A stretch of 64,000 nt of DNA. Source: a virus (lineage: Duplodnaviria; Caudoviricetes). Below, piece after piece: positions 1-38,022 of this stretch; positions within the stretch are counted from its first letter, which is position 1, and every line of letters starts with the position of its first letter. The notes below the pieces were generated by a model. That model saw only the letters and a program-made list of their open reading frames with translations. It made no database searches and was not told the DNA's origin. The DNA is taken from positions 15,990 to 79,989 of the IMG/VR virus record IMGVR_UViG_3300021958_000045; one strand, given 5' to 3'. Both the position numbers and the translations under genes were made by a program.

Positions 1-3000
1 AAGCTCATCCAGTCTCTTCCGTCTTTTTTTCCAGTACTGCTTTGAGACCAAGCTTTAGACATTTTATTATCTTCATAATTTTTGGTATACATAGATCGTA
101 GAGATTGACTCAACTCTTCCCATTGTCTACCGTCTTGTTTGCCTGTATCGCTTTTTGTCCAAGCTTCTGCAAGGTCTACGTCAGGACTATCAAATTTTGT
201 TTTACTTAAAGTTTTACTTAGACTATCAATATTTACGTTTAATTTATTTATTCCAGGTATTGGATTCTTTTCTGCTCTAGAAGACTGACCTCTATTTGGA
301 ACAAATCCTTGTGCAGCGTTTTGAATTTTTTTGTCATATGGATCTATACCAAATTCATCTTGAACATCTTCTGCATATTTTCTAGATACTGAAGAATTTT
401 TTGGAGGAGCTACAAAATCAACCCCTCCATGGCTAAATATTTTTTCTTGAGCATTTACAATTCTTTTTTCGTATCTTCCTGTTCCTGTTCTCAAATTAGC
501 TATACCCACTTGATCGGCGGTAACAGGTTTTTTGTAGCTCGCTAAAACTGATTGTTTCACCTCTGAATATGCTTGATGCAAATTAGCTTTTCCTGGAGAA
601 GAAGCCGCTGTTCTTGAGCTTGCAAAAGGTTTGGATTTTTTAGGCTGAAACCCTAAAGCAGAATTATTAACCTTTGCTTTGCTAGCTTTTGCTTGATTTT
701 GTTTTGCAAAATCTTCAAGCATTTTCTTTCTAGATAATTCTTCTGGACTCAATCTTCCATCTTTATTTAAGTCATAAGCTTCATCATATGAAATTTTACT
801 TTTTTGTTCTCTCACTTTATCAGCCTGTTTTTGCATGGTTCTAATATCTTGAGATGCATTAGCTGCGGCCTGCTGAACAAGATCCAAATCAAAAGTTTCT
901 TCTAAACCTTCCAGTTTATTTGTTTTTGCGATCACGTCAAACGGACCTGTACCCTCAAGGCGAGACATAGTTTTCCTAGATTCTTCTTGAATTATTGGAA
1001 CTCCATTGCTATCGGTTCTAACTAATTTATCTGCAACATCTATATTTAATCTTAAAGCAGCTTTTTTCTCTTCATCACTTAATTCAGAAATGACTGGTCT
1101 GCGAATAATGTTTTCAGATATAGATGCCATTTCTGGATTAGCTCTAAAACCTCTAGGATTAACAGAGTCAAAAAGAATATTGTGTTTTGCTTCTGGATGA
1201 TTGCTAATTATTTTTTTGAAATTGTTAAAATGAGCAATTCTTTTTCTTGCCAAAGATTCTAACTTTCTCTTTCGATCTTTTTCAGTTCTAATATATGAAC
1301 CATTTATTTTTGTTGCGCCTTGACCTTGAATATCTAAATCTTCAAGCTTTTTAATATTGCCGTCGGTTTCGTTCATGAATCTGTATTGCAATACTGCACT
1401 AGATCCTGCAGAAGATATAAATCTTGCTAATGGTTCGCTAGTACCAAGTCTATCCATCATTTGACCTGCAGCTCTAGAAATTCCAGAACTTCTTCTTTTT
1501 TCGCCTACGATTCTCCGAGCGACCATTTCTCTTTTTTTGTATTCTCTTAGTTCATCTCTTTCTCCTCGTGTAAGCGGAGTTCTGCTATCTATTTTTCTCT
1601 TAAGATAGTCAGGTACTCCTTCACCTTTTGCTGTTGCATATAAATCATTTTTATCTACGTTAGATATATAATTATTTAATTGGCTAACTATACTTGGTGG
1701 AACCTTTTGCTCAATCGCTTCTTTATATTTTCTTTTAAAACTTTCTCTACCACTTAAACTCATTCCTTGGTATATTGAGGTAAAGTCTTCTGGCCCTCCG
1801 CCTTTAAAACCATTTTGAGCGCTCTTTGATATAGCCATCATTAATTTCTCATTAGGATCTAATATATTAAATCTGCCAACGACTTCTGGCTGTAAAGCTT
1901 GTTGAGCTTTCAACCCTGCATCTCTTCTTTCTCTAGAAACTACGAAGCCACCACCTTGCTCTGAGGCAGATGAAGTATCTGTTAAATCTCCAGGAGCGCC
2001 CGTAGCATTTAAGACAAACTTTGCAGATTCATTACCAAATAATGATAAAGCTCCTTTAGTGAACTTTCCTCCAAATTTTTCAGACCAAATATTTTGTAAT
2101 CTATCAATTTTTTCTCCCGCTTTATAAACATACTTATTCCCAGGGTGAGTATCTACAAGTAGTTCGTTAATTTTTTCTGGCGTAATTGCGTTATCGCCTA
2201 TTCGTTTTGCATATTCTCCATCTTCAGTCATCCACCCTCTTTGCATCATAACTGCTCGCATTTCATCTCCCCTAGCTTGCAATAGTTTTTTAGCTGCATC
2301 CTGTTTATCGCTAACAGGAATGTCAACACCTTCTCCAGTTTTTAACATAATTTTTTCTCCTGCATAGCTATCATACCAATCTTGATAAGCTGGACCCAAT
2401 TTCCAATCAGTATTTTGAATATCTAAATAATTTTTTCTATTAAGAACATCGTTCATAGTTGAATCAGGATAAGCCATTTGCCTATGAAACAATTCTTCTT
2501 GAATAGCTTCTTTATAGCGTTGCAAAGCTAGAGCTTTTGTTTCTGCATCTGCACCAGTGGCAACCTTTTGGTCGTACGCTCCTTTGGCATTATCTACTTT
2601 ATTCCAGAGAAAACCTTTTCTTTCGTTGTAGTCTTTACTGTATTGCTGTATAAATTTCAACGGGTCTCTTACATCAGTAAAGCTTTCTCTGCTAATTTTC
2701 CTTTCTTTTGCATTAGATACCATTTTTTCGAGACCCTCTTTATGCTTTTCTTGTATGCTAGTTTCTCTTTCTCTCCATGACGCAGCAATTTCTTTTGATT
2801 TTCCAAAAGGATTTGTTAAATTTGTATTATCATCTCCTCCTCGACCAGTGATTCCAGCAACTTTCGCAGAGGCATTGCTTGATAAATTGCCCATTTCATT
2901 TGCCATTACAGACATGGCATTTTGATTTGAGTATTTGTTGATAAATTCTTTTTCCTCTGAGAGTCTTCTCGCAGTATCAACCTCTTTAAATTGAGCTCCA

Positions 3001-21000: not shown

Positions 21001-24000
21001 AACTGTCTAATTTCAAATGGGTCAACGTTATAACCATAACCTCTAGAAAGATCAGGAAAATCTACTTTTAATTTTTCTTGTATATATTTATTTAACGATC
21101 TAAATTCTCTTGAATTAAAAAACTGTCTAAAATCTTCTTTTTGCGCTTCTGTCTTTGCCCTAAATAATCCATCCGCCCGAGACTCAGATTTTAGCCTTGT
21201 GTTTATTACTCCTCCCCTAGCCCCCATTGACATTAAATTAAACTCAGACAATGCCCTACTTATTTCAGCAAATTCTTCGTTTGAGTAATCTTTAATTTTT
21301 GATTTGCGCAGTGTATTTGGAGAGTACTTTCTGAAAATTGAAAAGTTTGGAACTGCACCGTATGCTAACTGAGGCGGCGAAGGTTCTGCCATTGGCGTTA
21401 TTCCGCTAGCATATGACTTAATTAAAGTTTGAAACTCTCTTGCTCTTTCTTTTCCTACTTTGGTATGAGATGGAGGTAACACCATTCCGCCGCTAGGTTT
21501 AAAAGGTAAGCTAAATGCTTTTTGTACATCTGCTCCTGTCGAATAAAACTTTTCTTTATTATTAACAACTACTCGCTCTTTCTTTCCATTAATCTCTAGT
21601 TTTTTAACTTGAGTATCTTTATATCCAACGTTTTGACCATATAACTGAGAAGCTTGACCAGCTTCTTTCATTCGGTCAGATTCAATACTAAAGTTGGGAA
21701 TAAACCCAGTTGCTAAAGTTTCAGTTTCTTGCGAAGTAACATCTGAAATAGTTCCGCCTGCAAAACTCTTAGAGTCTGCAGAAGAACTGCTAGAACTGAC
21801 ACTTTTAGAAACCATACCTTCTGCAAAAGTCTTGGAACTCGTAGAAGACTCGTCAACAGAAGTAAAACTATTTACATCTTCAGACCTCGAAGAATCCTTA
21901 AAGTTTTCTTTATATAATTGAGTTTGATAATCAGAATCACGAACTCGGTCTTTTTGCCTTGTAAAATTTGGAACAATGCCATGGCTTGCTATTTTAACTG
22001 ATTGAGGGTCATTCTCATATTGTTTCCTGAGAGAAATTAATTCTTTTTCAGAGTAACCTTTTTTGATCAACATTTCAAGATCAGACTTTGGCCCCTTATT
22101 TTTAATATAATTTTCTAAAAATAATTTATCATGCCAGCTTCTAGATGTAATTGTTTTACTCTTAAATCCATGTTTTGCTAGCATGTTTTGAGCGGCAGAT
22201 CTCTCCCCATTAGTTGCACCTCTTTTTGCAAGCTCTCTAATTGCCTTAATGTTAACAAAGTTTGGGACTGTTTCTGGAGCAGTAACAGAGAAATTGGGTA
22301 AAACCAACTCTTCATTTGTATTGGTTCTTTTTTGTTGTTTGGCGAACATGTATTCATTAAACTCTTCTTCAAGAGAATTTAAATCTTGTGTTGATACAGT
22401 TTTTCCAGTTGGAGAAATAATTTTATCTTTTTGGACGGTGAATTTTTCCTGAAATAATCTTTGTATATCTTGATCTTCTTTTCTAATTGCCTCAGATTTA
22501 GCTTTATTAAATTCTGTACTCTTTAATTGCTCTTGCTTCTTGAAAATTTCAGATTCAATTTGTTTAACTTTATCTGGGTTTTTGCCTGGGTTCGATGGTC
22601 GACTTAATTGGAATTTTTCTTTTTGAAGTGTTGTAATTTCTTTTTGTATTTTGTCATACTCAGTTTTATTAAATTTTTGCGCAAATTCCTTTGATTCGTA
22701 TACTATGTCTCTTGAACCCTTACCTGTTGGGCCCATAAGTGGATTTGTAACCTTTGATAATTGAGATGTTAAACGATTTAAAATTTTAACGTCTTGAGGA
22801 ATATTACTACCAACTCCATATGCATTACCAACAGAGAGATTTAATTTAGTTACTTTATCAGAAATGCTTTTATAATTTTTATTATGTATATTGTCTTTAA
22901 TAAATTTATTAAATGCGGGCGAAGCGAAATTAGGTATATGCCCATCTGACATAATAGCTAGACCTTTCATCTCTGCAAACTCTTGATATAATTTACTTAT
23001 TTGTTCTTCTGAAATTGACTCTGAACCACGAGCTTTCTTTACAAATTTTAATATATCTTCAGCACTGTCTACGTTTTTTGTAGTAAATTTTTCTGCGGAT
23101 TTTGCGAGGGCTTTTTGGGTATCTGTAGAAGTAAAAATTGTTTTTGAAACATTATCAAAGCTATCAGGATTGTATAGTCTTTTTAGGTCCGCTCCAGTTT
23201 TACCCATTGGGAAGGACTGATAATCTTCTGCCTTAAGAGATTGCACGTCTTTTATATTTACCTGACTAGGAACCTCTTCCCTCTTATTCTTCCAAGAGGT
23301 TAGTCGATCATAATTTCTATTGCCCGAAGAATTTTGGGCGACCTGAGTAGACTTAACTACGGCACCCATGATTTCAGGATAACCTTTTTGTGCAGCAAAT
23401 TGGGCAAACTCTTGAAGCTTAACATCGGAATCAAAAGAAATCTTATCTTTAGTTAGTTTATTTTGAGGTTTATGCCCAGAGATGAAATGCATTTTAGGGT
23501 TCTTACCCCACTGCTTAAACTTTGCATCAGGAAACTGCATCTTTGCAAGTTCCAAATCTTTTTCCATAACATACTCTTTACCACTCTTGGTTTGTTTAAT
23601 ATTAAACATTGATGGAATTCTTGCAAAATTAGGAATTAATCCTTGAGAATAATTTTCTAACTGAGGAACTTCTCCAGAAGCTCTTCTCCTCAACATCTTA
23701 CCTCTTGGCGTAAATTTATTTATTCTTTTTAAAATATCTTCCCGATGCTTCTTAAAGTATTCAATTCCTTCTTTTTTTGTTTTAAATTCTCCGCTAATTT
23801 GAGCTTCTTCTAAATGCTTTAATACAGAACCCATTTGAGGCCCTGGCTCTACTAATTTTTCTTGTATTAAATCTCGACCTTGTACAATTGGCTTAGGTGG
23901 CTCTTTGTATATTCCGCTTTCTTTTGCAATTGAGCTCATTCTACTAATATTCTTTTCATCGACTTGAGTAAATTTTCTTGCAGTTACATCGTCAGATAAA

Positions 24001-27000
24001 TTTTTGCCCATGTCAGATTCAAGCAATATTTGAAACTTACTTAAGTCTCCTACATCCTTAGTTAACCTATTAATAGATTTCTGCGTCAAATTCTGAGGAA
24101 AATTTGAGTGAAACATATGTCTTTCAACAAAAGGCGTTAAGTCTTTAGATAATTTACTCGCTTCTCCTTGAGACATAATTCTACCCAAGAAACTTTTCAT
24201 TGGCGCGACTCCAGCCTTTTCGTGACCGTAAGAAGTTATCGAGCCATCTTTGTTTATTTGTGTGTTTGTAACTTTGCCAAAATCATGCGTTAAAGCAGAA
24301 AACATCAATTTGCTTCTTTCTTTTTCTGGAAGCATTTGCCAATTTTTATTATTGGCCATTGCATTAGTTACAAGTTTTGTGTGATTAAATACATCTCCTT
24401 CGGGGTGATGCTTGGGAGACTGGGGAACTCCCTGCAATTTATCAATTTCAGGAAAATGCTTTATCCATCCAGACTCTTTTAGAAATTGCAAACCTTTTTC
24501 TGGATTGGTAGATTTAGATGCCCATTTCATCCATTCTTCTCTAACTCTTTCTTTTGGAAGATCTTTAAATTGTCCAACCATTTCTCGAGAATAGTTGATC
24601 AATTCTTTATCTGCAGAAAGATTAAACCTTCCAGCCATCTGCATAGATCTTAATACCCTCAAAGGGTCTTCTTTAAATCTAGGAGACGTAGGCTTCATGA
24701 TGCCGTCTTGTAAATCCTGCCTCCCTCCCAAGGGGTCAATAAATTTCTTTGTGAGAGGGTCGTAAGAAATAGAATTGATTGTTAAATCTCTTCTTTGTGC
24801 AGCTTCTTTGCGCCCCATATTAGGATCTACTTCAACCTCAAAACCTCTATGTCCAGCACCTACTTTCTTTTCTCTTCTTGGCATCGAGAACTCAAAATCT
24901 TGCCCCCCGCTTTTAGCTTTGAATACTCCAAAGTCTTTGCCAACTAAGCCTTCTTTAGTTAAAGATGGAGACAATATTTTTTGCAATTTTTCTTGTTCTA
25001 AACCAAAAACCTCAACATCCCAATCTTTAGGAAATTTGCCCATTAAAAAGTCTCGAGGAGCTCCGCCTACAATCTGAGCACTACCTCCAGCAGCTTGAAT
25101 TTCTTTTGATACTTTTTCAAGATATCTGGGGACGGGCATAGTTTCTGCCGCAAAGTTAGGGACAAGGTCTCTTTGTGTATTTTCTGGTTGAGCAAAGTTG
25201 GGAACCAAACCTTCAGCATTTCCACTACCTCTTCCAGAATGCTGGCCACTAAATTGATAATGAGTTCCAGTTATATTTTCATTTCTAAGGTTACGAATAG
25301 CTTCTATATTTTCAATTGCGTCATCGATCAGATCGTACTTACCCCCTTGCTTTTTCCAAATTCTCTCTAATAGAATCGCTTTCTTTTCTGCAGGCTTTAA
25401 ATTCCTATAACCAGGAACCCTTCCTCCTTTTGCTTTAATTATTTTTCCAGAACCATCGCTAGCAATTTTAATATTATTAAACATATCTGCGGTGGTCATA
25501 ATCTTTTCAGGATTAATTCCCCATTTTTTTAATTTTTCTTCAATAAATGGCACAGACTGTTTTGCTCGAGCAGTTAAGACAGTGACCGCTTGACCCTGAA
25601 GTTCTTTTGCTAACGGGGTAGGTTTAGCCAATCCTGCAGATTCAGCTTGAAACAAATCTTTAGACTTTACATTCTTAGAATAAGTGCCTAGTGTTTCGTC
25701 AAAATCATAAAATTTTCTAAAGCCTGCGTTTCTTTTGAGGGCAAAGTTGGGAACGAGTCCTTCAGATAATTTTGATACAGTTCTCTCTAATGTGCCAGCA
25801 TCTTTTGTAAAATTAGGAACAGCTCCTTCTGAATATTTTTTTAGAGATTTGCCTGGAGCTTGTTTTTTCTGACTCTCTTGAAGCTTGACAATCTTTTGCC
25901 AAATTTGGTTTGCTTCGCCATTTAACTGGCTAATCTTTGGATCTATTTCAGCTCTGGGCCTCCCAGATTGAGACAGTTGCTTTGCTTGTCCTAGTTTGCC
26001 CTGCCACATCTTTAAAAGCCTTGATCGATCTGACTGCATATCAACAGGCTTAATAAAATTAGGCACTGCTTCTTGAGAATTTAAATAACTAGCGTAATTG
26101 GGAACAACTCCTTCTGAATATTTCTTAGCAGACTTGCTAGATATTTGTTTCTTTTGTTTCTCTTGGAGGCCGACAATCCTTTGCCAGATTTGATTTGCTT
26201 CGCCATTTAGTTGACTAATCTTGGGATCTATTTCGGCTCTAGGTTTTCCAGATTGAGACAGTTGCTTTGCTTGTTCCAGTTTACCTTGCCACATCTTTAA
26301 AAGCCTTGGTCGATCAGACTGCATGTCTACAGGTTTAATAAAATTAGGAACTACTCCCTCAGAATAAAAGCCTGCCTTTTCATCTCTATTAAAATTCTTA
26401 TCCCCCTTTTTTAATATTTTTGTATATGCATCCATGGCAAAATATTCGCCAGATGCAGTTCCACTTAAAATGGAATTTTTTGTATTAAACCCTAAATTTG
26501 CTTCTGACCAACTATTAAATGACTCTATACCATTTTCTTTAACCCATTTACTAACTTTAGTTTTTAAAGATTTAATATTTTTAAATTCGATTTCATCATT
26601 TCCAATCTGAAAAGTTCCCGAGGTTGACATTCCTGGCTTGATTCTTTGTTTTAATTGTGGGAATGCATTGATTATGGTTTCCCAAGGAGTTTTGCCTGAA
26701 GAAGCACGAATTTGGTCAAAGGTACTGTGAATCTCTTTATTTTTCCATCTTCTTTTTCCTGTAAAGCCTGCGATTTTATCAAAATTTCTATTAGCTCCCC
26801 CCTTCATAGAAGGATCGTTTACATCTGCTCCTTTAGCTCTTTCTGAATATAAAATGTCAGTCTTGTTTTCGTAATCGTACTCTCCCTTGCCATAAGTAAA
26901 TCTAGTTGTTGTTCCAGTTTTTTTATCAGTTACTTGTATAATGGGTAATTGACCATTCCATTCATTAGTAGTCTTCATACCGTCGAACCCTTTAATATCT

Positions 27001-29786
27001 TTTTGGGCTCTTGCAAGATTTTTCTCTCTAATTTTTTTAAGTAATTCTGGCTTGCCCCAAGTAGACACAAAATTTGGTATACTTTTAGCAGCATCTGGAA
27101 TTATTCCTTGTGCAGCCCTCTTTTTACCACCAGCAGCAATAGCTTTACCTCGTCCAGCTACTGTTCCAGCGGCAGCCTTCTTTTGCTTTTCAAAATCTTT
27201 ATATTGTTTTAATTTTTGATAACCTCCCCTAGAATCAATAATTTTTTTAATTCCACTGCCAATATTTTTCTTGCTTGATGAAACTTTAGCATCTACATTT
27301 TTGCCTTTTCTTGAATCTAAATTAAATGCAGTTGTTAAGTTTTTTTGAAATTCAGGACCAGGAAAATCCCATCCAGCGGTTCCAGGATCGTTTTTTACAA
27401 CTGAATTTTTAATATAATTTAAAGTTGCTTCAAATACCCTTCCTGTGAATTGAGGGCCTGCAGACTTATCCAAGTAATCGCTTAATGGGCCAGAACCTTT
27501 AACCTTTCCTCTTGGCATAATATCTCTAGCTACATCTCCTATGGCAGAAGTCATATGCTTATCAACAATACTATGGAAGCTTGAGCCTTGTGATTGAGCC
27601 AGTCTACCGATAGTGAAGTTTCGTGCTTCAAATTTTGTGCCTTTAAAAGCTGGAGGAACTGCGCCATCAAACACTGAAGATGCTGCTACAGTTTGATTTT
27701 TTCCTGTTTCTGATTTGCCCGCTTCTGCTGTTATAATACCCTGTCCAGCTGCATTTAATTTAATTACCTGATTGTTGGTTGCTTTAAAATTTGGTACATA
27801 ACCAGTAGAGTAAAAGCTTTTGGTTCCATAGTCAGCGGCAGAATAAAATTTTTCAATACCATTGTCATAATTGAATCTTTGCATCATATCTTGATTTAAT
27901 ATTGCAGATGCGCCTGAACCCATAAAGTTTTCAACAATTACTTCATCTGTATTTGCAACGATATCTTGCTTTTGAGTTTTTGTTTTTTGAAAGTTTTTAA
28001 TTAATACAGGGGAAGCAGATTTAGAAGCTCCCCCAACTCTACGATTTATGTCTCTTTGTTCTGCAGCAAAAGAAGGAATAAATTTTGAATCAGTATTTGC
28101 AGGAACATAACCTTTTGACATGCCAAGATCTTTGCGTCCCGCTGCAGCTCTAGGACCTCGGCCATAAGGAACTACAGTGCCTTGATTACTTACTGCAACG
28201 TTGGCTAACGTAGACGACGAAGCGATTTTTTTTAAGAGCGCATCTTGCGCTATTCGTTCGGTCGTTTGTTTTTTTAAGACGCTGAGTATTGCCTGCTCTT
28301 TTGCCACTTGGCTTGTAGAGTCGCTTAGAATTTTCTGTCGAACCCCCTCTTCGCTCATTAAAATTTGAAGAATTGCAGCTTGCAAACCCTCTTGACGTTT
28401 AGTTTCACTGTTGATTGAAAAGATTGACTTCAATGCGCTCGCACCTTGTTGAGCGACGAATGCAAATAATTTAATAAATGCCCCACCAATTAAAACCATG
28501 CCAGGACCACTGATGAAACTACCAATACCTTTTAATAAAGTCTTGCCAATATTAGTGCCACTATCTTCTCCTACTAAATTATTTATTCCGTCAGCCAGAG
28601 TCTTAACTGTTTCTAATACTTTTTCAATGCCAGGACCCAAAGTCATTTCTCCAAAATTGGCAGCCAACTCTTTTATAGATAATCCTGTTTGACTAAGTAG
28701 AGCAGACATAGTTTTATTCAACTCTTCATTTCTTTGGGTGGCTTCATTAGTACTATTGTTTGCAGTTTTAAGAGCTTGATCGTATATACTAAATTCGCTA
28801 TTTAAGTCTTTAATTAAAGCTTTAAGGTTATTAACCTGAAACACTCCAGCAATTAATTCATCAGTTGCGGCTTTTTGAGCATCGCTTAAAGTATCGTAAC
28901 CTTTTGCATAATCTTGAAGCACTGCCATGCCAGAACGAAATGCCCCAGTTGCATCTTGCGTTGCAACACCGATTTCTTCTAAAGCTTCTCTTACGCTAGA
29001 TCTCTGCAATCTTGTAAATATACTTTTAAATGAGTTTCCTATTACTGCTCCACCTCTAGCTGTTTGCTGTTGAACACTAGTAACAGCAGCAAGAAGTTCA
29101 TTAAATTGCACTTTTGCAGATTGTGCAGTTGCTCCAGCTCTTGCTAAACCATCTGCTAAATCTTTAGAAGATACTGCAAAGGCTGCATCAACATTAGCCA
29201 ATCTATTGACAATATCTGAAGAATTTATAGCTGCATCATTAAAACCATTTATGGCTGCCGTAAGAGCATTTACAGCCTCCACAGAATCCATGCCAGACAA
29301 TCTTGTTAACGTCATTGCATCAGCAATACGCTGAAGGGTTTCGTCAGCACTTAAACCTTGTCTAGCAAACTCTGTTGCGGCAGCGGCTATATCTTGAAAA
29401 GATGATGCAGTATCTCTTGCAACATCAAATAAAGCTCCTCCAAAATTTTGTAAAGCAGACTCAGACATATTCATAATAACATTAACGTCTTTTAATGCTT
29501 TTTGAACTTCTATGGCTGATTGAGCCATTGCTTTTAATGCATCAGAAACTCCATTAATAACGGAAACTGCAGCACCAAACGCAAATACACGAGCGACAGC
29601 AGCGTCCATGGATTTTTCAAATTCTCCCATTTGGCCAGTAATTCTACCAAGAGGCTGGACGAGTCCTTTTTCATTCAATTGCAATTTAATGGGCTGAATT
29701 TTCTTTTCGCCCATTTTGGCTTGATTAGCAATATCTTGATCAAGACCTACTGCTTTAACTCTTACTCTAATATTTTCTTGTGCCAT
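1..29786 (-). CDS. Giant tape measure protein / multi-enzyme polyprotein, at least 9,928 aa, 3' end outside the window
   Basis: ATG at 29786 (MAQENIRVRVKAVG...). The frame was spot-translated open at many points down to position 3 (...KKDGRDWMS). No minus-strand ORF of this frame is in the track, consistent with no stop before the edge. It lies directly downstream of the tail tube and chaperone genes. Confidence 0.9.
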   Translation of the reverse strand, partial: MAQENIRVRVKAVGLDQDIANQAKMGEKKIQPIKLQLNEKGLVQPLGRITGQMGEFEKSMDAAVARVFAFGAAVSVINGVSDALKAMAQSAIEVQKALKDVNVIMNMSESALQNFGGALFDVARDTASSFQDIAAAATEFARQGLSADETLQRIADAMTLTRLSGMDSVEAVNALTAAINGFNDAAINSSDIVNRLANVDAAFAVSSKDLADGLARAGATAQSAKVQFNELLAAVTSVQQQTARGGAVIGNSFKSIFTRLQRSSVREALEEIGVATQDATGAFRSGMAVLQDYAKGYDTLSDAQKAATDELIAGVFQVNNLKALIKDLNSEFSIYDQALKTANNSTNEATQRNEELNKTMSALLSQTGLSIKELAANFGEMTLGPGIEKVLETVKTLADGINNLVGEDSGTNIGKTLLKGIGSFISGPGMVLIGGAFIKLFAFVAQQGASALKSIFSINSETKRQEGLQAAILQILMSEEGVRQKILSDSTSQVAKEQAILSVLKKQTTERIAQDALLKKIASSSTLANVAVSNQGTVVPYGRGPRAAAGRKDLGMSKGYVPANTDSKFIPSFAAEQRDINRRVGGASKSASPVLIKNFQKTKTQKQDIVANTDEVIVENFMGSGASAILNQDMMQRFNYDNGIEKFYSAADYGTKSFYSTGYVPNFKATNNQVIKLNAAGQGIITAEAGKSETGKNQTVAASSVFDGAVPPAFKGTKFEARNFTIGRLAQSQGSSFHSIVDKHMTSAIGDVARDIMPRGKVKGSGPLSDYLDKSAGPQFTGRVFEATLNYIKNSVVKNDPGTAGWDFPGPEFQKNLTTAFNLDSRKGKNVDAKVSSSKKNIGSGIKKIIDSRGGYQKLKQYKDFEKQKKAAAGTVAGRGKAIAAGGKKRAAQGIIPDAAKSIPNFVSTWGKPELLKKIREKNLARAQKDIKGFDGMKTTNEWNGQLPIIQVTDKKTGTTTRFTYGKGEYDYENKTDILYSERAKGADVNDPSMKGGANRNFDKIAGFTGKRRWKNKEIHSTFDQIRASSGKTPWETIINAFPQLKQRIKPGMSTSGTFQIGNDEIEFKNIKSLKTKVSKWVKENGIESFNSWSEANLGFNTKNSILSGTASGEYFAMDAYTKILKKGDKNFNRDEKAGFYSEGVVPNFIKPVDMQSDRPRLLKMWQGKLEQAKQLSQSGKPRAEIDPKISQLNGEANQIWQRIVGLQEKQKKQISSKSAKKYSEGVVPNYASYLNSQEAVPNFIKPVDMQSDRSRLLKMWQGKLGQAKQLSQSGRPRAEIDPKISQLNGEANQIWQKIVKLQESQKKQAPGKSLKKYSEGAVPNFTKDAGTLERTVSKLSEGLVPNFALKRNAGFRKFYDFDETLGTYSKNVKSKDLFQAESAGLAKPTPLAKELQGQAVTVLTARAKQSVPFIEEKLKKWGINPEKIMTTADMFNNIKIASDGSGKIIKAKGGRVPGYRNLKPAEKKAILLERIWKKQGGKYDLIDDAIENIEAIRNLRNENITGTHYQFSGQHSGRGSGNAEGLVPNFAQPENTQRDLVPNFAAETMPVPRYLEKVSKEIQAAGGSAQIVGGAPRDFLMGKFPKDWDVEVFGLEQEKLQKILSPSLTKEGLVGKDFGVFKAKSGGQDFEFSMPRREKKVGAGHRGFEVEVDPNMGRKEAAQRRDLTINSISYDPLTKKFIDPLGGRQDLQDGIMKPTSPRFKEDPLRVLRSMQMAGRFNLSADKELINYSREMVGQFKDLPKERVREEWMKWASKSTNPEKGLQFLKESGWIKHFPEIDKLQGVPQSPKHHPEGDVFNHTKLVTNAMANNKNWQMLPEKERSKLMFSALTHDFGKVTNTQINKDGSITSYGHEKAGVAPMKSFLGRIMSQGEASKLSKDLTPFVERHMFHSNFPQNLTQKSINRLTKDVGDLSKFQILLESDMGKNLSDDVTARKFTQVDEKNISRMSSIAKESGIYKEPPKPIVQGRDLIQEKLVEPGPQMGSVLKHLEEAQISGEFKTKKEGIEYFKKHREDILKRINKFTPRGKMLRRRASGEVPQLENYSQGLIPNFARIPSMFNIKQTKSGKEYVMEKDLELAKMQFPDAKFKQWGKNPKMHFISGHKPQNKLTKDKISFDSDVKLQEFAQFAAQKGYPEIMGAVVKSTQVAQNSSGNRNYDRLTSWKNKREEVPSQVNIKDVQSLKAEDYQSFPMGKTGADLKRLYNPDSFDNVSKTIFTSTDTQKALAKSAEKFTTKNVDSAEDILKFVKKARGSESISEEQISKLYQEFAEMKGLAIMSDGHIPNFASPAFNKFIKDNIHNKNYKSISDKVTKLNLSVGNAYGVGSNIPQDVKILNRLTSQLSKVTNPLMGPTGKGSRDIVYESKEFAQKFNKTEYDKIQKEITTLQKEKFQLSRPSNPGKNPDKVKQIESEIFKKQEQLKSTEFNKAKSEAIRKEDQDIQRLFQEKFTVQKDKIISPTGKTVSTQDLNSLEEEFNEYMFAKQQKRTNTNEELVLPNFSVTAPETVPNFVNIKAIRELAKRGATNGERSAAQNMLAKHGFKSKTITSRSWHDKLFLENYIKNKGPKSDLEMLIKKGYSEKELISLRKQYENDPQSVKIASHGIVPNFTRQKDRVRDSDYQTQLYKENFKDSSRSEDVNSFTSVDESSTSSKTFAEGMVSKSVSSSSSSADSKSFAGGTISDVTSQETETLATGFIPNFSIESDRMKEAGQASQLYGQNVGYKDTQVKKLEINGKKERVVVNNKEKFYSTGADVQKAFSLPFKPSGGMVLPPSHTKVGKERAREFQTLIKSYASGITPMAEPSPPQLAYGAVPNFSIFRKYSPNTLRKSKIKDYSNEEFAEISRALSEFNLMSMGARGGVINTRLKSESRADGLFRAKTEAQKEDFRQFFNSREFRSLNKYIQEKLKVDFPDLSRGYGYNVDPFEIRQLENVSAGTVPNYANLTLYRGQKNPTLDRPNIGKNMPSFKGAQTPQDVINIIQNFVKSHVSGPLSGRRDIGELDNVAPSGATSFSTSETIAKEFAGGGLNKPAKDNILSTQVSEKNVFNKKKILKLLNRGANPKKGIYPEVEKFKQAMASGQIQKWAEQVGGLFLNVSGRRNDPALMQFNKKEYGRKEYDFYGRSMQSIVPQSDIGWNQNKTSQISSREHEVMQIFNDGIIPNFAPAAGKAGRQKNKPYQDDPDNVIDLRPFTTYDYSLLFPQRGGGAPQSTVRGSGPYAKKYQSQFLVGWNSKGINPKIPKEADRIAKIGDLVERDVKTIVKAHSENFVRAFGEQEIRMQDSSIIDRVVQKHFNEGTLTAMAGNAFEAAANAAFSNIPVNAGGGDFDVRGPTDQLRKFFNWPSSHGSIGDFKANAQSGDIKASMADKILKELDYQGLLSGQVAKEKADFEKYDKQKAATNKQATMNRFRAMPSANALRGAAIKGKQTAQGQQAHEKIPGYMRSGEELENYYKSNQNFYSGIVPNFIINKNLSQEKIPKLVDRNVTQQSYALGKQSEKINLQTRDKNVESKIVQEQEKDLSKQDEFISLSQGLISQKIDNASDSKSVNSYNKSADTQSVIKRQDSSQAKEKKIESTINNSYISYGEKESSSNSSFAESIKSKQSDFINGFQSFSQGMVSKDVSTDSKSFSQGMVSKDVSTDSKSSSQGMVSKDVSTDSKSSSQGMVSKDNQQASSEVFSQGFSLESNKVSSNSTNQENRVFGREDNFSTLYRLRDNFQENESSTKENVLNRRKESIEKRKNKQVIQKYFQGYTPEKQKPSDREFKYLKNDNKEKDSKTEIIESIYSQGKEISKERLSNGYVPNFALNVNSASRGNDALGAAIKRESQAGIPMHKIRIGQSNRLKNESNPGGVGVYNTIDEPRGLGQGISRSISQGINPQKHGLVANGYVPHSTFSVPNFIGRFIPKMFKRGGSKAADAAIPTPTGGGMFGGGGGMMNTIFMGQMMFGGIEGQTGTAGGYAADAAGDALQIAAITSMITDKKKWVALAASVGALNGVLDQYSKSLKVQGDQIERNIQINGKAIESATQVVSAQSRLNSAIEGGDPENITKAIKSLQKQIESFPSGSSAIDDLRSALVTANGDVQKMSTALEKFSASALKVNQLGQLTIKAQAANENREGVLPFGFGPTQLPDFVPFFGGEKGELKDEARGEIRNIGMQSVQGLELAEEQVTSLSKKLSKINFEEFSAEDIRSTIKEFSSTLDEETRTLFDQIVDNIPDEGMVDFTVGIKEQLKLRKESIEAGKAVGKTSSALGNLKSTIVNLSTAVSRSISELNSNITKAFDIAEKQFNSELSIMTGMNYMTPNEARSAQEEFSVTRINAETAAGTEFEVSKFVNQLMKDTKMEDFEGEDGSVFSGKLADVLNKMYLKSSELEQGDGRFMADDIVSAIERIDFDERTQEEQELIDSVRQLNEKANQQIALLKLGNEIAAREDLLQARKNLESTQLDVTAREGEIMEQFAFGQSFEPETQLDLDVQARATQDMVGLMEGLFGKSPELNDMRQQANMQNAIGNVNRILMMLGVETETGFDAKADANIDMGDVVNSMKKALVEQDLPDGTQKMVSYMIKQLTAQQGALASTPSDRSELTRKTLQSTAEALNIDLEELGLDPRTMGFNDLTSIADQLGDNGVEIRLLSSIDEGIQTLSKTLQPEQGISAEEIVKAIRNIKVADTEKVEQRTKASKQQDEARQKIQNIAIDGANVNIGGSTKINTSGNITIHGGANSTEPPQPAPSRGGVPNFARNSSTRDRKKSPIRGLKESLNEDKLKESRGFEQFAGKTFTGGRALQVANYYPGAIDSIYREVEALEKKGITNALNNVQLTIPASSNSLANFQYQGAVVTNTVDEGNVTPRSYLNKIENVHDLSPRDSEFSMTGMIDNSSSQTQAISTVRRSSQNASANQIANNYSIANQKSSWKSARAQSSIGDTYNAGAALRVANYYPEAKETIQKEIKTLKDRGVKNPINEIQFTVPDQELSEIGPKSIIDSVITNRVDDGSVAESNYLTKIQNTHKTGLRIQKQKEFISPSAEQRAENLVKNEKILRNNLHQNIISKRKDSQKTKEQEVYSESVWGETTYAPKQTMAQKLAGKTFTGGAALRVAKYWPGASESISREITALENKGVMDPISNIQLTVPGGKSQYFSSYDGPVVTNKIDEGGVAPTNYINKIRGVHKLGPQEGAFASHGTLDEDVDDKTKFMRGYLERNPYVPNFAAPQKGARRIINTARALGEDMDIWDLEPESIKPSAVANWNSSGAALLKQVHGLQGNSQGGLSKLQRAFIEEMRKEENQQIFSKIGVENFDFDQAKFMDPEIGEPQIFRPMVIEYMGGNKDGQVVPVEEATKAKPRDFQSGKYIISQIDSTNPDIDELELFTGEENRAIRQAVANQDADSEETMRRQRAAKATQRAVERGGPKARSDAGPNVRATKTLGDSAPKVGTLTEAAKQNMKGLESHIIPKDLADDIRSQEAITARAAENATEQASKEIGKSAEGGFVRQAGTWLKRQLQTLRILTGRSTEQKQGINPVKEEEILSQIENEGVRTYSGDTPTNPLETNEDVKSILAEKVDGEVDTGADRVHKQKENYLQRERSVTEKIQRAIQANRIRKNRQKKQRQRQKELEQKARRTLEEQKAQQRQEEIERVRKIQEAEIDKGLGRTRTSMAIGEGSEFKDVLTYNNPELRELSSWDKIKKTALKFVGRYKGSEIEEVERQNNIVRTQQMQDLASGENIASEETTFSKLQKLSNERSVTTSTSATSESLFQRPASTPRNPWTTSVVSHRSQKSPVVEMAEELIEQRAMNISGSVSPIKDAPEESKKQSILRQVIGGSTSPEGVDGLFSLRAETIDPPLLERIRRAKSQLFPEHGNVSFRQAGIVPSKSPSTVLSDFDILASDGTLIGTMDSTGIIHPPTVETKPVIYDANGRAVGAQKVAGVQTAQAQLQLAPANTGELAVSASQADVLNQAQVSKISNKLKSGSDLSVEEMNVLQQWANNNPDLVNSIETGQENKTLLLENADVKSRASRLTDKQFEISKVTSAAKAENQIDELINNPEFVDRATRTMPGDPIHLQRMFDNIDSRKSVPLPPTETALDKVKTNSNINRRANELQKQLVLREIRQKAPLELQKRLRLPANFNEADLNKKFLSEKQRLQQLIDNPNIPSNKRGIIEEDLRILTRNKNEHLNALDPKLMERQDLFINRQFKELIADAGLSVFTGGGAEGVSKLDVTNQAMAKKLGPAAFDLDGDFVKLREEISKVLFLDPENTAGFDKNLAESLVDRELRVIGLDSQGKGFGLGDRMRENLINLDRFVGMGMGEDFLRQAKTQNLHKSDINVARLVSFMDLMDPAGNKLDGKAIENLKKGGIDKIFQKIQKGELFSQTAIRGKTVPMIPKDPEAVLNNLKNADLASQVNASRILENEGKLSSLAASKGNGIVNPASLELAAQELEAGRQPLSTSDVGEDGIDLTKTRMTAEELASLQSTMDSLDGDLDQKAPDQRLSTLSQSLDPENTIETSRNIIAEKQQQLINDRLVEKAEFDRLTSLGNAATQEDLQRMSELLQIDNLRVSQGRSSNFDRENVTRANNQLASFNQQSVRTASNEVGVKLTKREDSPVRSRRSEEAIEELDALEEAKADPVEQAAAVRETGAETEAKVREVASVDDNIVQQTIEEVEEVDDNWKKSKEEYLADPEKAATSERLLEKGKAHKRLIDYLVETKGWKNTMQAGKGIWNGVSSIVPIAGSAKDWTAEKWGTVRERISAWRAEQAKKHPEGIAKQMAEENHRAEQSRKAEAKLAMEMNIGSKPIAFDTSESLTQTFKQTEKFNRSQSGWTEYEDKVLDQLTGRMRVEQNGKDIITYDPKLSPYVGSKDIKEAHALRRSLNPKDHMMKRITAGENIKFLKAGEVMKKVNQGTTAVKGALLDKQISAPKSLTSSNVFQRRLIESETSGKHINVPEEFSKTITRKGNDYRALDLDKVAEGLRESTRVVDYQEPDGSIKTYSVDEFEKKRSEAFSNIQKRAELSSRSISETSTSELGDFKKESISEKIRMEQEKFMRGVLPGDIDGNPGRYTLTKEGSLLRAKEINRQANAVNLQRAGQAFDSAMNYGGGPLRGATVGTLLPAAGILAFQTETGMSVLDSAANMIGSEPKHFVLEKQVRNKDNVSVGTGNYLSTAGTDLIQQQKTLLNKKKQAGLLDAPEEASWHDKALTKIGLKQMAESKVEGDKNATELARKNIAAKIARRNLEGLAGGEEGIPGLSEYTMASQDNLEDARAQPMFFESREAATQYAHENNLSGYSAKGLGDNSEERAFLRSYGKGFAQGKVGEGNDLAESVGLSQFTGSEVAGVLSANLADAAIVGTRARMGTSTAAAMTKGAALKTAARRFAGVTAAEFFVARGEKARMDYSGMEGHLRAGGNYALGFGTGLAFESKNPLLGFAVGAPLGAAAYTARVGLGDYLNFDPDEINNTKYAMSSEELLERQKEIINLAKSKAESARQLLDKYYLGSFVNKGKRLGVDYSSKEAFHTFYDQAERDRYYQLAIEQGEIMRSAYRLAEQMDTRILANRDLYQAGTLQKNEKPNEKLVKHNYTADAVSKILSDTVTLFDPNLVTDLKEQTKMEKEGFTQKQILEKLNSKDFTSTKINEKGEEYVYQPNTEELVNLRQQKSRTYLKGLERVHDFNARQGLLRSSTDYAGASSLEETMEIGKMPEKEFLKEKISWDPDSNLGKIKDRRAQIFYKDGKKITDYDEWMKEMDRGSLDYGKLTYPYEMAQVLGIDTVDHRDTNRRIPMLKVQARIKEQFQNFRTTGRIEKKPAQAVDKILQGMGIASQGGDNSKETKINNFILGKQDDGWNVQYDEATKSTIMKHEKHGLVSFPGMGDVNNERSFERLYEKHMQDLTKSRYEEPMQSYYKAQKNFASGEQTPATRKAFEQSQAERVKNTRGISDADPSREYGRPGYGEENYNKSKFKTFEEFDEKIPKEQRIYLSAMSALLKRGEEAQYQSKDMQGQDVEYYEALADLQADEVMHAQFNKALIERNMGVQASKTQITEAGYSMQKGLGYGTQVDAINKDFESAEVGSANILKLGSLNPEDINGYVSRFQGGLESKREEDIKLRKRVSEREAEMSVIDKKLTSNISQKERDHLTAERGEIVKSLSETKLKRANLKPFLTAPDKVAQGMQLRKNSQTQFESTINRLSKQLGIDEEISLDRKVGSLYNHFSKNPLYTGKSNIEDSKKSAPGDVSKNVLEQKDRWMLREEAIQMMVARNRRLRLEKKKLEKASPGSQIIQQKTFNDDDEFELRRTMNIFADGRSSATKKSTSKQFQKDLDEWHSSRDTKSSYASIIRDQETYSELLKKKGLYLRTGEEDSIAGQAILEGKIGNQSYRGTYFRDLFDSVMTRGSNQGESFNGLLDQKKQAMQDWELVKGLPEMLPYTATMESAYRKGMGLDTKNDDLLGAIPYEEIQKSKQKLNNQLMTAGYSMNWWRDKDVSTRTEDWNKLLIENFRKPVKEDLLKSGGARLAGGIIDEADGTVRAQKDFANVLDEDGNIIQSADERAADALVQNIKKDFKLFDVNQDGIITPDEINLLDDRFDPAKFNPEEGIGYNESARKIAGTRRGTLTPEIFRALTTKFDGSGLGDGPDGGLSRAEIFQNDGSGNDKNKSIVQDRVRDFLKNKYVKQVSPYGESLKEGLNSYFYGGTEGGVRAVEIWKELAMLDKNSIPEASREDFSKAQSEAMKLIQNVGLHRSIISKGQKLDQRSQDRYGDLFKQKMDLQLSPEDIKNYRHLETELGSDKWKGKEHLPAYREMQETMNAYRERRDKVSFINNEFNQGSTKEGMLAGRAFSLPNFLINQGLINEGDSKAGEPWAPAAIGDDWQNYSDRYFRGISSVAQAMDSSTAEKVAKDLGINIKTGGQGGWAGEPDTIFETEKDPQDITNQITGYDEAALDRQFGAQFKEVDTARRLSEEKEFINKYSNQNAMSVMANEMGNLSSNASAKVAGITGRGGDDNTNLTNPFGKSKEIAASWRERETSIQEKHKEGLEKMVSNAKERKISRESFTDVRDPLKFIQQYSKDYNERKGFLWNKVDNAKGAYDQKVATGADAETKALALQRYKEAIQEELFHRQMAYPDSTMNDVLNRKNYLDIQNTDWKLGPAYQDWYDSYAGEKIMLKTGEGVDIPVSDKQDAAKKLLQARGDEMRAVMMQRGWMTEDGEYAKRIGDNAITPEKINELLVDTHPGNKYVYKAGEKIDRLQNIWSEKFGGKFTKGALSLFGNESAKFVLNATGAPGDLTDTSSASEQGGGFVVSRERRDAGLKAQQALQPEVVGRFNILDPNEKLMMAISKSAQNGFKGGGPEDFTSIYQGMSLSGRESFKRKYKEAIEQKVPPSIVSQLNNYISNVDKNDLYATAKGEGVPDYLKRKIDSRTPLTRGERDELREYKKREMVARRIVGEKRRSSGISRAAGQMMDRLGTSEPLARFISSAGSSAVLQYRFMNETDGNIKKLEDLDIQGQGATKINGSYIRTEKDRKRKLESLARKRIAHFNNFKKIISNHPEAKHNILFDSVNPRGFRANPEMASISENIIRRPVISELSDEEKKAALRLNIDVADKLVRTDSNGVPIIQEESRKTMSRLEGTGPFDVIAKTNKLEGLEETFDLDLVQQAAANASQDIRTMQKQADKVREQKSKISYDEAYDLNKDGRLSPEELSRKKMLEDFAKQNQAKASKAKVNNSALGFQPKKSKPFASSRTAASSPGKANLHQAYSEVKQSVLASYKKPVTADQVGIANLRTGTGRYEKRIVNAQEKIFSHGGVDFVAPPKNSSVSRKYAEDVQDEFGIDPYDKKIQNAAQGFVPNRGQSSRAEKNPIPGINKLNVNIDSLSKTLSKTKFDSPDVDLAEAWTKSDTGKQDGRQWEELSQSLRSMYTKNYEDNKMSKAWSQSSTGKKDGRDWMS
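738..779 (-). other. EF-hand loop in the giant ORF
   Basis: AYDLNKDGRLSPEE, canonical D-x-N-x-D-G-x-x-x-x-x-E. Confidence 0.6.
3903..4148 (-). other. EF-hand pair in the giant ORF
   Basis: FKLFDVNQDGIITPDE (canonical 12-residue loop, 4101-4136) and a degenerate partner DGPDGGLSRAE (3906-3938). Confidence 0.6.
14290..15480 (-). repeat. Three diverged copies of a ~90-aa domain in the giant ORF
   Basis: GxALxVAxY[YW]PxA..I.[RK]E[IV]..L...G...I...Q[LF]T[IV]P...V[VI]TN.[IV]D[ED]G at ~15210-15475, ~14780-15040 and ~14290-14550. Confidence 0.85.
18789..18965. repeat. 48-bp tandem repeat, ~3.7 copies, encoding a 16-aa Ser-rich unit (xSQGMVSKDVSTDSKS)
   Basis: Unit atccttagagaccatgccttgagaggaacttttggaatcggtagacac starts at 18789, 18837, 18885 and 18933. 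Confidence 0.97.
19560..20303 (-). other. PD-(D/E)xK nuclease-like cassette 2 in the giant ORF
   Basis: AGNAFEAA...GDFDV...GDFKAN, same order and spacing as cassette 1. Confidence 0.5.
20322..20963 (-). other. ADP-ribosyltransferase (R-S-E clade) cassette in the giant ORF
   Basis: LTLYRGQ (R 20946-48), TSFSTSETIAKEFA (STS 20745-53), SREHEV (E-x-E 20343-51). Confidence 0.8.
21981..22256 (-). other. DUF2786-like helical hairpin cassette in the giant ORF
   Basis: IKAIRELAKRGATNGERSAAQNMLAKHG resembles the DUF2786 pattern. Confidence 0.35.
23733..25139 (-). other. cca: Class II tRNA nucleotidyltransferase (CCA-adding enzyme) with HD domain, in frame inside the giant ORF
   Basis: IVGGAPRDFLMGKFPKDWDV, RREKKVGAGHRGF, RRDLTINS, EDPLRVLR, ERVREEW; HD part PQSPKHHPEGDVFNHT...THDFGK...GHE...ERH...ESD; C-terminal GRDLI..PGPQMG. 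Confidence 0.93.
25263..25727 (-). other. HAD-superfamily phosphatase cassette in the giant ORF
   Basis: Motif I FYDFDETL, motif II VLTAR, candidate motif III K (EKKAILL), motif IV LIDDAIEN. Confidence 0.75.
25810..26350 (-). repeat. Direct duplication of a ~250 bp linker-bounded cassette (offset 285 bp)
   Basis: Two near-identical copies of PNFIKPVDMQSDRxRLLKMWQGKLxQAKQLSQSGxPRAEIDPKISQLNGEANQIWQ...KKYSEGxVPN. Confidence 0.95.
27100..27785 (-). other. PD-(D/E)xK nuclease-like cassette 1 in the giant ORF
   Basis: GRVFEA...WDFP...VDAKVS. Confidence 0.5.
28300..29786 (-). other. Tape measure core domain (TP901/PhageMin_Tail-like) of the giant ORF
   Basis: Ala/Gln/Leu-rich helical sequence with typical motifs: EFARQGLS, LTRLSGMD, LANVDAAFAVSSKDLADGLARAG, TARGGAVIGNSFKSIFTRL. 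Confidence 0.85.
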
Positions 29787-29792
29787 GTGAAC

Positions 29793-30907: not shown

Positions 30908-30923
30908 GCATTATGGCCCTAAA

Positions 30924-31790
30924 TTAAGAATCAATTTCTTCTAGCAAGCGATCAAAATCTTCTTGATTTGAAACTCCGCTCATATACCAAATGGTAGTAA
31001 GAGAACTAAGCTTATCAATTGATCGAAGGTAAACTTGATCGTTTTGTTCATCGAGCTCTAAATAAGACTGGTACTTATCATCATAAGTTTCTCCAGGAAA
31101 TAAAGGAATCGTTTCTGCATCATCTTGATCTCCATAAGAAACATGAGTTAGGTTTAGCAAATACCATGTGATGGTTTTATTTCTAGCTTTAATGTCTGCA
31201 GTATGATCAAACATACTAGCTTGAACTGCTTCAAAATCTGTAAGTTCTTTTCTGATAATACCAAGCTCCTCTACAGCAACTCTTAACCTTTCATTTTCGT
31301 CATTACTTCTTTCATCTTCAGTTTTAAGGCTAAATCTTTGCACTGCTTGTTGCTTTTCATAAAGCCTTACATATAATTGAGAATAGCGCTGTTTTTCTTC
31401 TTCGGTTAAAGATCCGCCGACATCAAGATGTTGTTTTGCTAACATAGCTCTTGTAAGCAATCCCATTTTAATGTATTTGTTGAGCCAAATACTATAAAAC
31501 ATATCTCCATCCTCTAATTGGGTTCGAGTAGGCTTTCGCAAGACAACCCTAACTGGCTGCTCCTCAACTACGTCGCGCATTTCGGTAGCAATTTTTTTCT
31601 CCTTAACCTTGCGCTTTTCGGTAACGAGAACTTTTTCCATTTTCCCCGTTTTTTTATTCTTTCTTCTTTTTTCTACTTCAACTTCTTTTTCAACCTCGAC
31701 TTCCTTCTCAACTTCAACTTCTTTTTGAGAATTTACATCAAGAGAAATTGAGAACGAATATAATTCTTTGTTAATTGCAGTGACAGCCAT
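30924..31790 (-). CDS. Putative tail assembly chaperone
   Basis: 288 aa between the tube paralogues and the tape measure gene; KEVEVE x3 repeat; call is positional. Confidence 0.5.
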   Translation of the reverse strand: MAVTAINKELYSFSISLDVNSQKEVEVEKEVEVEKEVEVEKRRKNKKTGKMEKVLVTEKRKVKEKKIATEMRDVVEEQPVRVVLRKPTRTQLEDGDMFYSIWLNKYIKMGLLTRAMLAKQHLDVGGSLTEEEKQRYSQLYVRLYEKQQAVQRFSLKTEDERSNDENERLRVAVEELGIIRKELTDFEAVQASMFDHTADIKARNKTITWYLLNLTHVSYGDQDDAETIPLFPGETYDDKYQSYLELDEQNDQVYLRSIDKLSSLTTIWYMSGVSNQEDFDRLLEEIDS

Positions 31791-33493: not shown

Positions 33494-33497
33494 AAAC

Positions 33498-38000: not shown

Positions 38001-38022
38001 GAGGAGTGGGGGGAACAAAGAA

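Follow-up and report, generated by a model that had tools for sequence, protein, structure and literature searches.

A 10,562-residue tape measure protein with an exchangeable, motif-bounded cassette array in an uncultured marine/estuarine siphovirus, and its putative role as a carrier of packaged cargo

The stretch of DNA analysed here (the window) spans 64,000 nucleotides (nt) of a tailed virus (Duplodnaviria; Caudoviricetes), corresponding to bases 15990-79989 of the 79,989-bp viral contig IMGVR_UViG_3300021958_000045, for which CheckV estimates a completeness of 57%. Its most conspicuous feature is a single open reading frame (ORF) on the minus strand that proceeds from an ATG at window position 29786 to position 3 without a stop codon, amounting to 9,928 amino acids (aa). 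An earlier note, made from the letters of this window, had described the frame as a tape measure protein (TMP) of at least that length that serves as a carrier of cargo. Upon extension into the contig the gene proved larger than claimed, encoding 10,562 aa in 31.7 kb (contig 14087-45775, minus strand, with its stop at 14087 and no ambiguous base) and thus taking up ~40% of the contig. We describe below its parts, its relatives and the contents of its N-terminal third, which would probably, in our assessment, be packaged as cargo directed at the host.

The giant gene, its parts and its setting

The protein is punctuated by a peptide of the form [Y/L]-S-x-G-x-[V/I]-P-N-F-[A/I/S], hereafter the PNF motif, which occurs in 24 copies as against 0.26 expected, nearly all of them between aa 664 and 5199, and which is not a feature of the other proteins of the phage. 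Based on this motif and on sequence comparisons, the following parts can be delineated (window coordinates):

1..29786, minus strand: giant ORF, aa 1-9928 inside the window; the gene extends 1,902 nt past the window edge to contig position 14087
27786..29786, minus strand: TP901-type tape measure core, aa 1-667, recognised by PF10145, TIGR01760 and TMP PHROGs and ending at the first PNF motif
18384..27785, minus strand: cassette array, aa 668-3801, ~15 segments of 82-509 aa, each PNF-bounded, as judged from motif count, homology-block ends and clustering
25743..26339, minus strand: tandem duplicated 82-aa unit, aa 1150-1348 (78% identity by self-BLAST; 285-nt x 1.9 tandem repeat)
25152..25742, minus strand: candidate HAD-like cassette, aa 1349-1545, from conserved motifs only
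23625..25151, minus strand: CCA-adding / tRNA 3'-end repair family enzyme with an HD domain, aa 1546-2054, from Pfam, PHROG, PDB and NCBIfam matches
20304..20966, minus strand: candidate ADP-ribosyltransferase-like (ART-like) cassette, aa 2941-3161, from motifs and language-model neighbours
18384..19397, minus strand: Ser-rich low-complexity cassette with a 16-aa repeat, aa 3464-3801 (48-nt x 3.7 tandem repeat at 18789-18964, 96% matches)
18099..18383, minus strand: conserved 95-aa module between two PNF motifs, aa 3802-3896, the hallmark of the family, followed by a Gly/Met-rich hydrophobic stretch
15585..18098, minus strand: post-module segment, aa 3897-4734, comprising that Gly/Met-rich hydrophobic stretch and then a region common to 10 family proteins
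14181..15584, minus strand: triple repeat of ~155-aa units, aa 4735-5202, with PNF motifs at aa 4731 and 5199
1..14180, minus strand: long, charged, fast-evolving and PNF-poor body, aa 5203 to the C-terminus, of which the last 634 aa lie beyond the window
294..584, minus strand: degenerate second copy of the module, aa 9735-9831, aligning to a C-terminal module that is PNF-flanked in 7 of 13 giant relatives

Apart from its helical body, the architecture perceived in the earlier note is borne out by this partition: the ~3,300-aa array that it placed at 28.1-18.1 kb corresponds to aa 560-3896, the PNF-delimited region, the triple repeat is recovered by self-comparison at aa 4767-5179, and the long charged region has a content of ~30% K+R+D+E.

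The first 667 residues match PF10145 (1.5e-28; 100.5 bits against a cut-off of 33.2), TIGR01760 (127.7 bits against a curated cut-off of 28.8) and 12 TMP families of PHROGs (best 1e-52), and a hydrophobic scan picks out two segments within them (aa 59-80 and 420-445). The minus strand is ordered as large terminase, head genes, tail tube, three genes, the giant ORF and ORFs of 557-1,075 aa, which is the canonical siphovirus morphogenetic layout with the giant ORF at the tape-measure position. The family matches and the position of the gene uphold the tape measure core recognised by the earlier note, and the giant ORF is a genuine TMP of an uncultured marine/estuarine siphovirus; cultured phages are distant, with ~25% identity in both the large terminase (TerL) and the TMP core. 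The neighbouring genes that bear on this assignment are:

43517..45382, minus strand: large terminase (phrog_2, 5.4e-22; tblastn matches to phage terminases), which fixes the morphogenetic gene order
32642..33508, minus strand: tail tube protein (PF18906, 5.5e-05; phrog_290, 9e-06)
29822..31790, minus strand: two genes directly upstream of the TMP, coding for 361 and 288 aa, in the chaperone position and co-conserved with the TMP

Of 76 related contigs, 61 keep the 361-aa gene and 58 the 288-aa gene; the downstream tail-tip genes are not conserved. The products of the two upstream genes have no family or structure match, and their coordinates reveal no overlap of frames of the canonical G/GT type.

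To assess the reality of so long a frame we turned to independent data. Matching DNA has been seen in estuary and marine metagenomes from many studies, dating from 2018 to 2024; runs with small word shares (X9-X24) do not count toward this habitat. Logan contigs from four runs outside the probable source samples, compared across window 9800-29790, show no indels and three single-letter differences; in run X3 eight pieces cover 14353-29790 without any difference, and the only joints in this comparison have sides of 20-22 nt, a size typical of unrelated or spurious sequence. Window 1-9800 and the rest of the 3' third of the gene are supported by collinearity with G001, an IMG/VR relative with an uninterrupted complete frame of 10,437 aa on an 82-kb contig. 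A second such relative, G002, has one of 8,166 aa; both retain these open frames at 48-64% identity, and the protein is collinear with that of G001 across 171 in-frame indel events. Purifying selection extends along the whole protein in comparison with G001, the ratio of nonsynonymous to synonymous substitution rates (dN/dS) being 0.02-0.13 across aa 1-3500 and ~0.15-0.5 beyond aa 4500, values that are rough given the saturation of dS against this closest relative. The stop-free frame of the earlier note thus survives the check for misassembly, there being no in-frame stop, and no indel in the contigs of the four other runs across window 9800-29790.

The N-terminal core recurs at 37-75% identity in another 13 proteins, 5,468-7,702 aa long, that come from other assemblies. 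In one more relative, the 206-kb ENA contig L012 (L012:1482-21548), the equivalent TMP is called as three genes of 2,840, 1,361 and 2,475 aa. We rejected natural gene splitting in this instance in favour of frameshift artefacts: at both junctions the downstream frame is open for 50-55 codons upstream, and at the first the open stretch reads as normal protein, including SEGVVPNF, in an assembly that was polished with Pilon. Judging by these junctions, short 'cassette-only' proteins in the databases may be fragments of giant TMPs.

Among the other genes of the contig, a homolog of ERCC4-type nucleases (phrog_3490, 8e-10) at window 45379-46359 on the minus strand lies directly upstream of TerL, at the place expected for a small terminase. 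Window 38000-40000 has a GC content of 0.43, as against 0.33-0.39 elsewhere, over a 377-aa ORF at the expected position of the major capsid protein; no known family matches this ORF, and just 4 of the 76 related contigs hold a relative of it. Outside the window, contig positions 1-2194 (L001) hold three consecutive plus-strand genes for a collagen-repeat protein (PF01391, 3e-4), a cyclophilin-type prolyl isomerase (1.7e-35) and a 2-oxoglutarate-Fe(II) oxygenase (4.6e-14), a trio that could constitute a maturation set for a collagen-like fibre. The presence of a prolyl isomerase in the phage is also of note beside the invariant proline of the PNF motif.

A wider tape measure family and its 95-aa module

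The 95-aa module allowed us to place the giant protein in a wider setting. It was found in 77 IMG/VR contigs, where it is always bracketed by PNF motifs and followed by hydrophobic segments rich in Gly, Ala and Met, and in 10 of the 13 giants; alignments of the module (A2 and A3) display invariant R-E, N-P and N-T-x-D-E-P signatures. The 59 complete ORFs bearing it are of more ordinary size (1,701-4,099 aa, typically 2,100-2,600 aa), with ~four PNF motifs and the module at ~aa 890-950, followed by a further 1,200-1,700 aa, and the number of PNF motifs rises with protein length (r = 0.88). Only two parts are recognisable across 76 module-bearing contigs, namely the core (in 58-67 contigs) and the module (in 74). 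The plan of the family, at ~2,200 aa, is accordingly an N-terminal core, a short PNF-bounded spacer, the module, hydrophobic segments and a variable body. The giant protein is an ordinary member of this family in which both the pre-module spacer (the array of ~3,100 aa) and the post-module body (~6,700 aa) are expanded, and it is the largest sampled member of what is a big uncultured family of TP901-type TMPs.

The module is absent from all of 50,697 records of cultured phages, has no relative in Pfam or PDB, and shows no similarity to lambda gpH (hhalign probability 0.7%). Its sole solid match in genome collections, at 48% identity, is on NZWA01000041.1 (L130), a 77-kb contig in a metagenome-assembled genome of a marine member of the Flavobacteriales; it may belong to a phage that was placed in the bin of its host, making the Flavobacteriales a weak lead as to the host. 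Matches to Gardnerella (40% over 54 aa) were discounted.

Beyond the module and the repeats, the charged body is 35-64% identical to that of G001, with dN/dS at ~0.15-0.5, and bears no similarity to the bodies of the 76 related TMPs, its relatives being detectable in the closest phages only. It has no matches in Pfam, PHROG, NCBIfam or PDB, and its recognisable domains are limited to weak EF-hand-like loops, at ~aa 8545 and 9670. A concealed RNA polymerase of the two-barrel type with a DxDxD signature was considered and rejected, as the sole DLDGD, at aa 6227, reads NMDGN in G001. In the giant ORF, several copies of W-x-x-S-x-T-G-K-x-D-G-R-x-W occur near the C-terminus (aa 9854-10178, partly outside the window).

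Cassettes, PNF fences and the absence of cysteine

We then examined how the cassettes are distributed across the family by cutting 32 family proteins of more than 3,000 aa at their PNF motifs. The resulting 450 segments fall into 53 recurrent clusters and 106 singletons, and their order and number differ among proteins: G002 is without the HAD-like and CCA cassettes, P0002 has the former and is without the latter, and the CCA cassette is located at aa 4840 in P0004 and at aa 1296 in P0011. The ends of homology blocks lie within 12 aa of a PNF motif in 60% of cases as against 12.6% at random (27 of 64 when distinct ends are counted; P = 4e-9). Comparison of these sequences thus demonstrates that the PNF fences are where cassettes have been acquired, lost and rearranged. 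As the synonymous codons of the motif vary freely, selection acts at the level of the peptide rather than of the DNA, and a role as a DNA-level recombination signal can be ruled out. Instead, we suggest that the motif acts as a protein-level handling signal, which could be a hinge, a point at which the tube or the conserved upstream proteins dock, or a site of cleavage that sets the cassettes free.

Of the cassettes, that at aa 1546-2054 carries an HD domain and can be assigned with certainty from its sequence to the class II nucleotidyltransferases of the CCA-adding/poly(A) polymerase family. It is detected by PF01743 (PolyA_pol head; 4.4e-19, 69.5 bits against a cut-off of 23), PF13735 (tRNA_NucTran2_2; 31.2 bits against 27) and phrog_2244 (2.6e-66), and it recovers solved CCA enzymes and poly(A) polymerases (PDB 3wfo and 6ibp) at ~1e-19 to 1e-20. 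Its best NCBIfam model is NF008137, 'multifunctional CCA addition/repair protein' (2e-51), at 175 bits against an equivalog cut-off of 451, which makes it a family-level member that may add either CCA or A. This cassette is 95-97% identical to that of G001, with dN/dS of 0.02-0.06.

Two further cassettes are candidate enzymes by virtue of conserved motifs. The HAD-like cassette displays, in order, motifs I (DFDETL), II (ILTAR), III (KK) and IV (LIDDA), all conserved in an alignment with four relatives; no hidden Markov model (HMM) match to it is significant, the best being DUF2608 (E = 0.13), and NCBIfam yields nothing. In the ART-like cassette, alignment A1 of 11 sequences (52-94% identity) shows invariant R7 (LYRGQ), S70/S72/S74 (SFSTS) and E206/E208 (E-x-E), and the nearest language-model neighbours are ART-PolyVal, Arr and PARP at 0.84-0.86, scores that are to be taken as a lead only. 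A profile of this cassette run against 1.84 billion proteins retrieved TMP-like proteins only, and a metagenome scan added few homologs. Two additional cassettes, at aa 668-906 and 3162-3463, are nuclease-like and bear a marginal likeness to each other (E = 0.024); a language-model search with the second yielded nothing. The Ser-rich cassette is the part of the array least conserved relative to G001, and its repeat at 18789-18964 is the sole place where the contigs of other runs are interrupted and deviate (C>T at 18903), such that it may be variable in copy number. Few other recognisable domains occur in the arrays of this lineage: besides the CCA enzyme we noted DUF7178 in two IMG/VR relatives (L121, 1e-19; L124, 5.5e-20), and LysM, DUF2441 and CI-repressor-type domains in other members.

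A property common to all these parts is the avoidance of cysteine. Not one of the 10,562 residues is a cysteine, as against ~130 expected from the 1.24% in the other long ORFs of the contig, and the enzyme cassettes are no exception. Among 32 relatives the content is at most 0.09%, and 7 cysteines occur among the 183,933 residues of the 77 ORFs with the module. A parallel is offered by gp96 of the Thermus phage P23-45 (likewise in P74-26, G20c and TSP4), a 5,002-aa TMP in which the N-terminal 1,100 aa form a virion RNA polymerase responsible for transcribing the pre-early genes (Chaban et al. 2024, PMC10770324). It too is devoid of cysteines throughout its 5,002 aa, the polymerase domain included. 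Such avoidance fits a chain that lives outside the cytoplasm and passes through a narrow channel, whereas a chain confined to the cytoplasm would have no obvious need for it.

Packaged cargo, its rivals and known systems

In light of these observations, we regard it as probable, though well short of assured, that the protein, besides being a TMP, has in its N-terminal third a packaged cargo destined for the host. In TMPs the C-terminus lies at the tail tip and the N-terminal part is head-proximal; because of this polarity, N-terminal cargo would leave last, before the DNA. We propose that the cysteine-free chain would be laid into the ~4-nm tail tube in an extended, metastable state and, upon infection, be expelled tip end first, its hydrophobic segments helping to build a conduit through the envelope, with the head-proximal N-terminal third exiting immediately before the DNA. 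The cassettes would then refold in the host and might act ahead of any phage gene expression, the CCA-adding/HD enzyme restoring tRNA 3' ends cut by some defence systems and the ART-like and HAD-like cassettes modifying host targets. tRNA tails are indeed a target of immunity, for example by Cas12a3, of which one representative is from a Bacteroidetes bacterium (PMC12851939), and a pre-loaded CCA/HD enzyme would make sense against defences that cut them; a search for tRNA genes on the contig found none. Delivery into the host is a plausible, putative function.

Several points weigh against this proposal. The lumen of the tube is ~4 nm wide and is occupied by the TMP, and folded domains of 200-500 aa cannot fit in it as three copies (PMC9022992), so that an unfolded stored state must be assumed. 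Packaging of the array is predicted here from the sequence of a phage that, like its relatives, is uncultured, and the dN/dS values that speak for its constraint are rough, as stated above. Ordinary family members free of cargo are also poor in cysteine, and therefore the avoidance indicates that the cassettes are under the constraint of a TMP and does not prove delivery. The ART-like cassette has no match in Pfam at E <= 1, among ART families of PHROG or among PDB profiles, the ART-PolyVal model PF18760 has no match on the genome, and its AlphaFold model is unusable (mean pLDDT 47). Almost no known domains were recognised in the remaining cassettes or in the arrays of relatives, such that one of ~15 cassettes is a firmly identified enzyme, two are assigned at the level of motifs and ~12 are unrecognised. 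The notion of an effector-carrying TMP put forward in the earlier note consequently holds for one enzyme in a linker-delimited array, is suggested for two more cassettes by their motifs, and falls short for most of the cassettes.

The strongest rival, which we nonetheless deem unlikely, holds that the 10,562-aa chain mainly dictates tail length, which at 0.15 nm per residue would come to ~1.6 µm, and that the cassettes are length filler acquired by recombination whose enzymatic ancestry is incidental or of secondary benefit. The earlier note, which correctly put the longest characterised TMPs at about 5,000 aa, had found a literal ruler of such size implausible; that argument is weakened by gp96, since its 5,002 aa, enzyme included, fit an 800-nm tail at 0.16 nm per residue, and the enzyme part therefore seems to count toward length. 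Tails of ~1.0 µm (from the body alone) or ~1.6 µm (from the whole chain) are accordingly possible at 0.15 nm per residue, and a ruler and a cargo carrier would each be out of the ordinary. The post-module body by itself exceeds the family baseline five-fold, and its rapid evolution, with many in-frame indels, is like that of ruler segments. However, no other part of the protein is as constrained as the array (dN/dS 0.02-0.13), and mere filler is not expected to be held so tightly; the near-identity of the CCA cassette between this phage and G001, its intact scores against catalytic-family HMMs, and the invariance across relatives of the candidate catalytic residues in the ART-like and HAD-like cassettes point in the same direction. 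A test for compensating indels, as would conserve length, was not significant and does not discriminate: the 150 events in the body relative to G001 sum to a net 41 aa, against a random-sign standard deviation of 87 (P = 0.36). Composition (helix formers, Pro+Gly) does not separate ruler from cargo, as the polymerase part of gp96 resembles its ruler part.

Less probable again is that the protein is a late polyprotein, cut at the PNF motifs in the producing cell, with the core, module and body entering the tail and the freed cassettes acting in the producer or being packaged elsewhere, for example in the head. The TMPs of lambda (gpH) and T5 (pb2) undergo proteolytic trimming, and the PNF motif is short, selected as a peptide and positioned exactly at the borders of cassettes, as a protease site would be; it also brackets the module in ordinary TMPs. 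Yet no protease was recognised in the ORF or in the neighbouring genes, enzymes of the cytoplasm need not be free of cysteine, and fusion to a structural protein of few copies would be an odd route to enzymes for the producer cell; moreover, the virions of P23-45 hold the RNA polymerase part of gp96 (PMC10770324). Finally, the view that chimeric or collapsed assembly produced the giant frame, or that it belongs to a decayed pseudogene staying open by chance, is suggested by its source in a metagenome assembly and by the three called genes in L012 but is close to excluded, given that contigs from independent runs agree with no indels, the frames of two relatives stay open through 171 in-frame indel events, selection is purifying throughout, PNF motifs are not conserved at the DNA level and hence cannot seed repeat-driven misassembly, and the breaks in L012 resemble frameshifts in a polished assembly.

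Returning to packaged cargo, a more far-reaching version, which we offer as a speculation that we would not ourselves bet on, sees in the PNF motif a built-in release site, operating for example by Asn-dependent self-cleavage or through cleavage by a conserved protein of the tail module. The TMP would then be a true injected polyprotein, with ~15 proteins held unfolded in a micron-plus tail and freed in the host before the DNA, and the fences would amount to a plug-in standard by which marine phages swap counter-defence cargo that acts before gene expression.

If the array is indeed packaged, phage tails would be, besides conduits for DNA, devices for protein delivery with a modular cargo bay, and the single case of P23-45 would widen to a general and evolvable strategy in the ocean, with a wealth of as yet unrecognised phage proteins that act early, among them probably counter-defence functions such as pre-loaded repair of tRNA ends. 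A protein twice the size of the largest TMP studied, from a marine lineage, also bears on the state of TMPs inside a 4-nm tube, on how folded enzymes emerge from it, and on the maximum length of virus tails (~1 µm from the body or ~1.6 µm from the chain, the present record being nearly 1 µm). The PNF peptide and the 95-aa module provide concrete handles on these matters, being short enough for biochemistry that requires no culture of the phage.

Among characterised systems, gp96 of P23-45 is the closest in organization: it too is a giant TMP at the canonical position, with an N-terminal enzyme, zero cysteines and hydrophobic segments of membrane type, and both suggest a protein of the tail lumen with catalytic cargo. 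Its authors termed the fusion 'a previously unsuspected association' and left its packaging unexplained (PMC10770324). The two differ in that they have no sequence similarity, that gp96 lacks PNF motifs and carries one enzyme as opposed to an exchangeable array of ~15 cassettes, and that gp96 is thermophilic, whereas the protein described here is 2.1 times longer and belongs to a marine, mesophilic lineage. A second, partial parallel may be drawn with the polyvalent proteins of phages and conjugative elements (Iyer, Burroughs, Anand, de Souza and Aravind 2017, PMC5512222), which are likewise giant chains of unrelated enzymatic or uncharacterised domains in mosaic order, encoded among virion genes and proposed to enter the host with the DNA. 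In contrast, that account makes no mention of tape measures, the anchors being MuF, portal, relaxase and similar domains (PMC5512222). Nor is a regular linker like the PNF motif described for them, and their ART-PolyVal model has no match here. Third, certain TP901-family TMPs, such as those of mycobacteriophage TM4, T5 (pb2) and SPbeta-type phages, have embedded wall-degrading domains. These possess a core of the same family (TIGR01760, PF10145) and set a precedent for small folded domains within a ruler, but they are TMPs of 1-2.3 thousand aa with a single insert that acts on the envelope, whereas the present protein has many inserts, including a tRNA enzyme of a kind that acts in the cytoplasm, all fenced by a dedicated motif.

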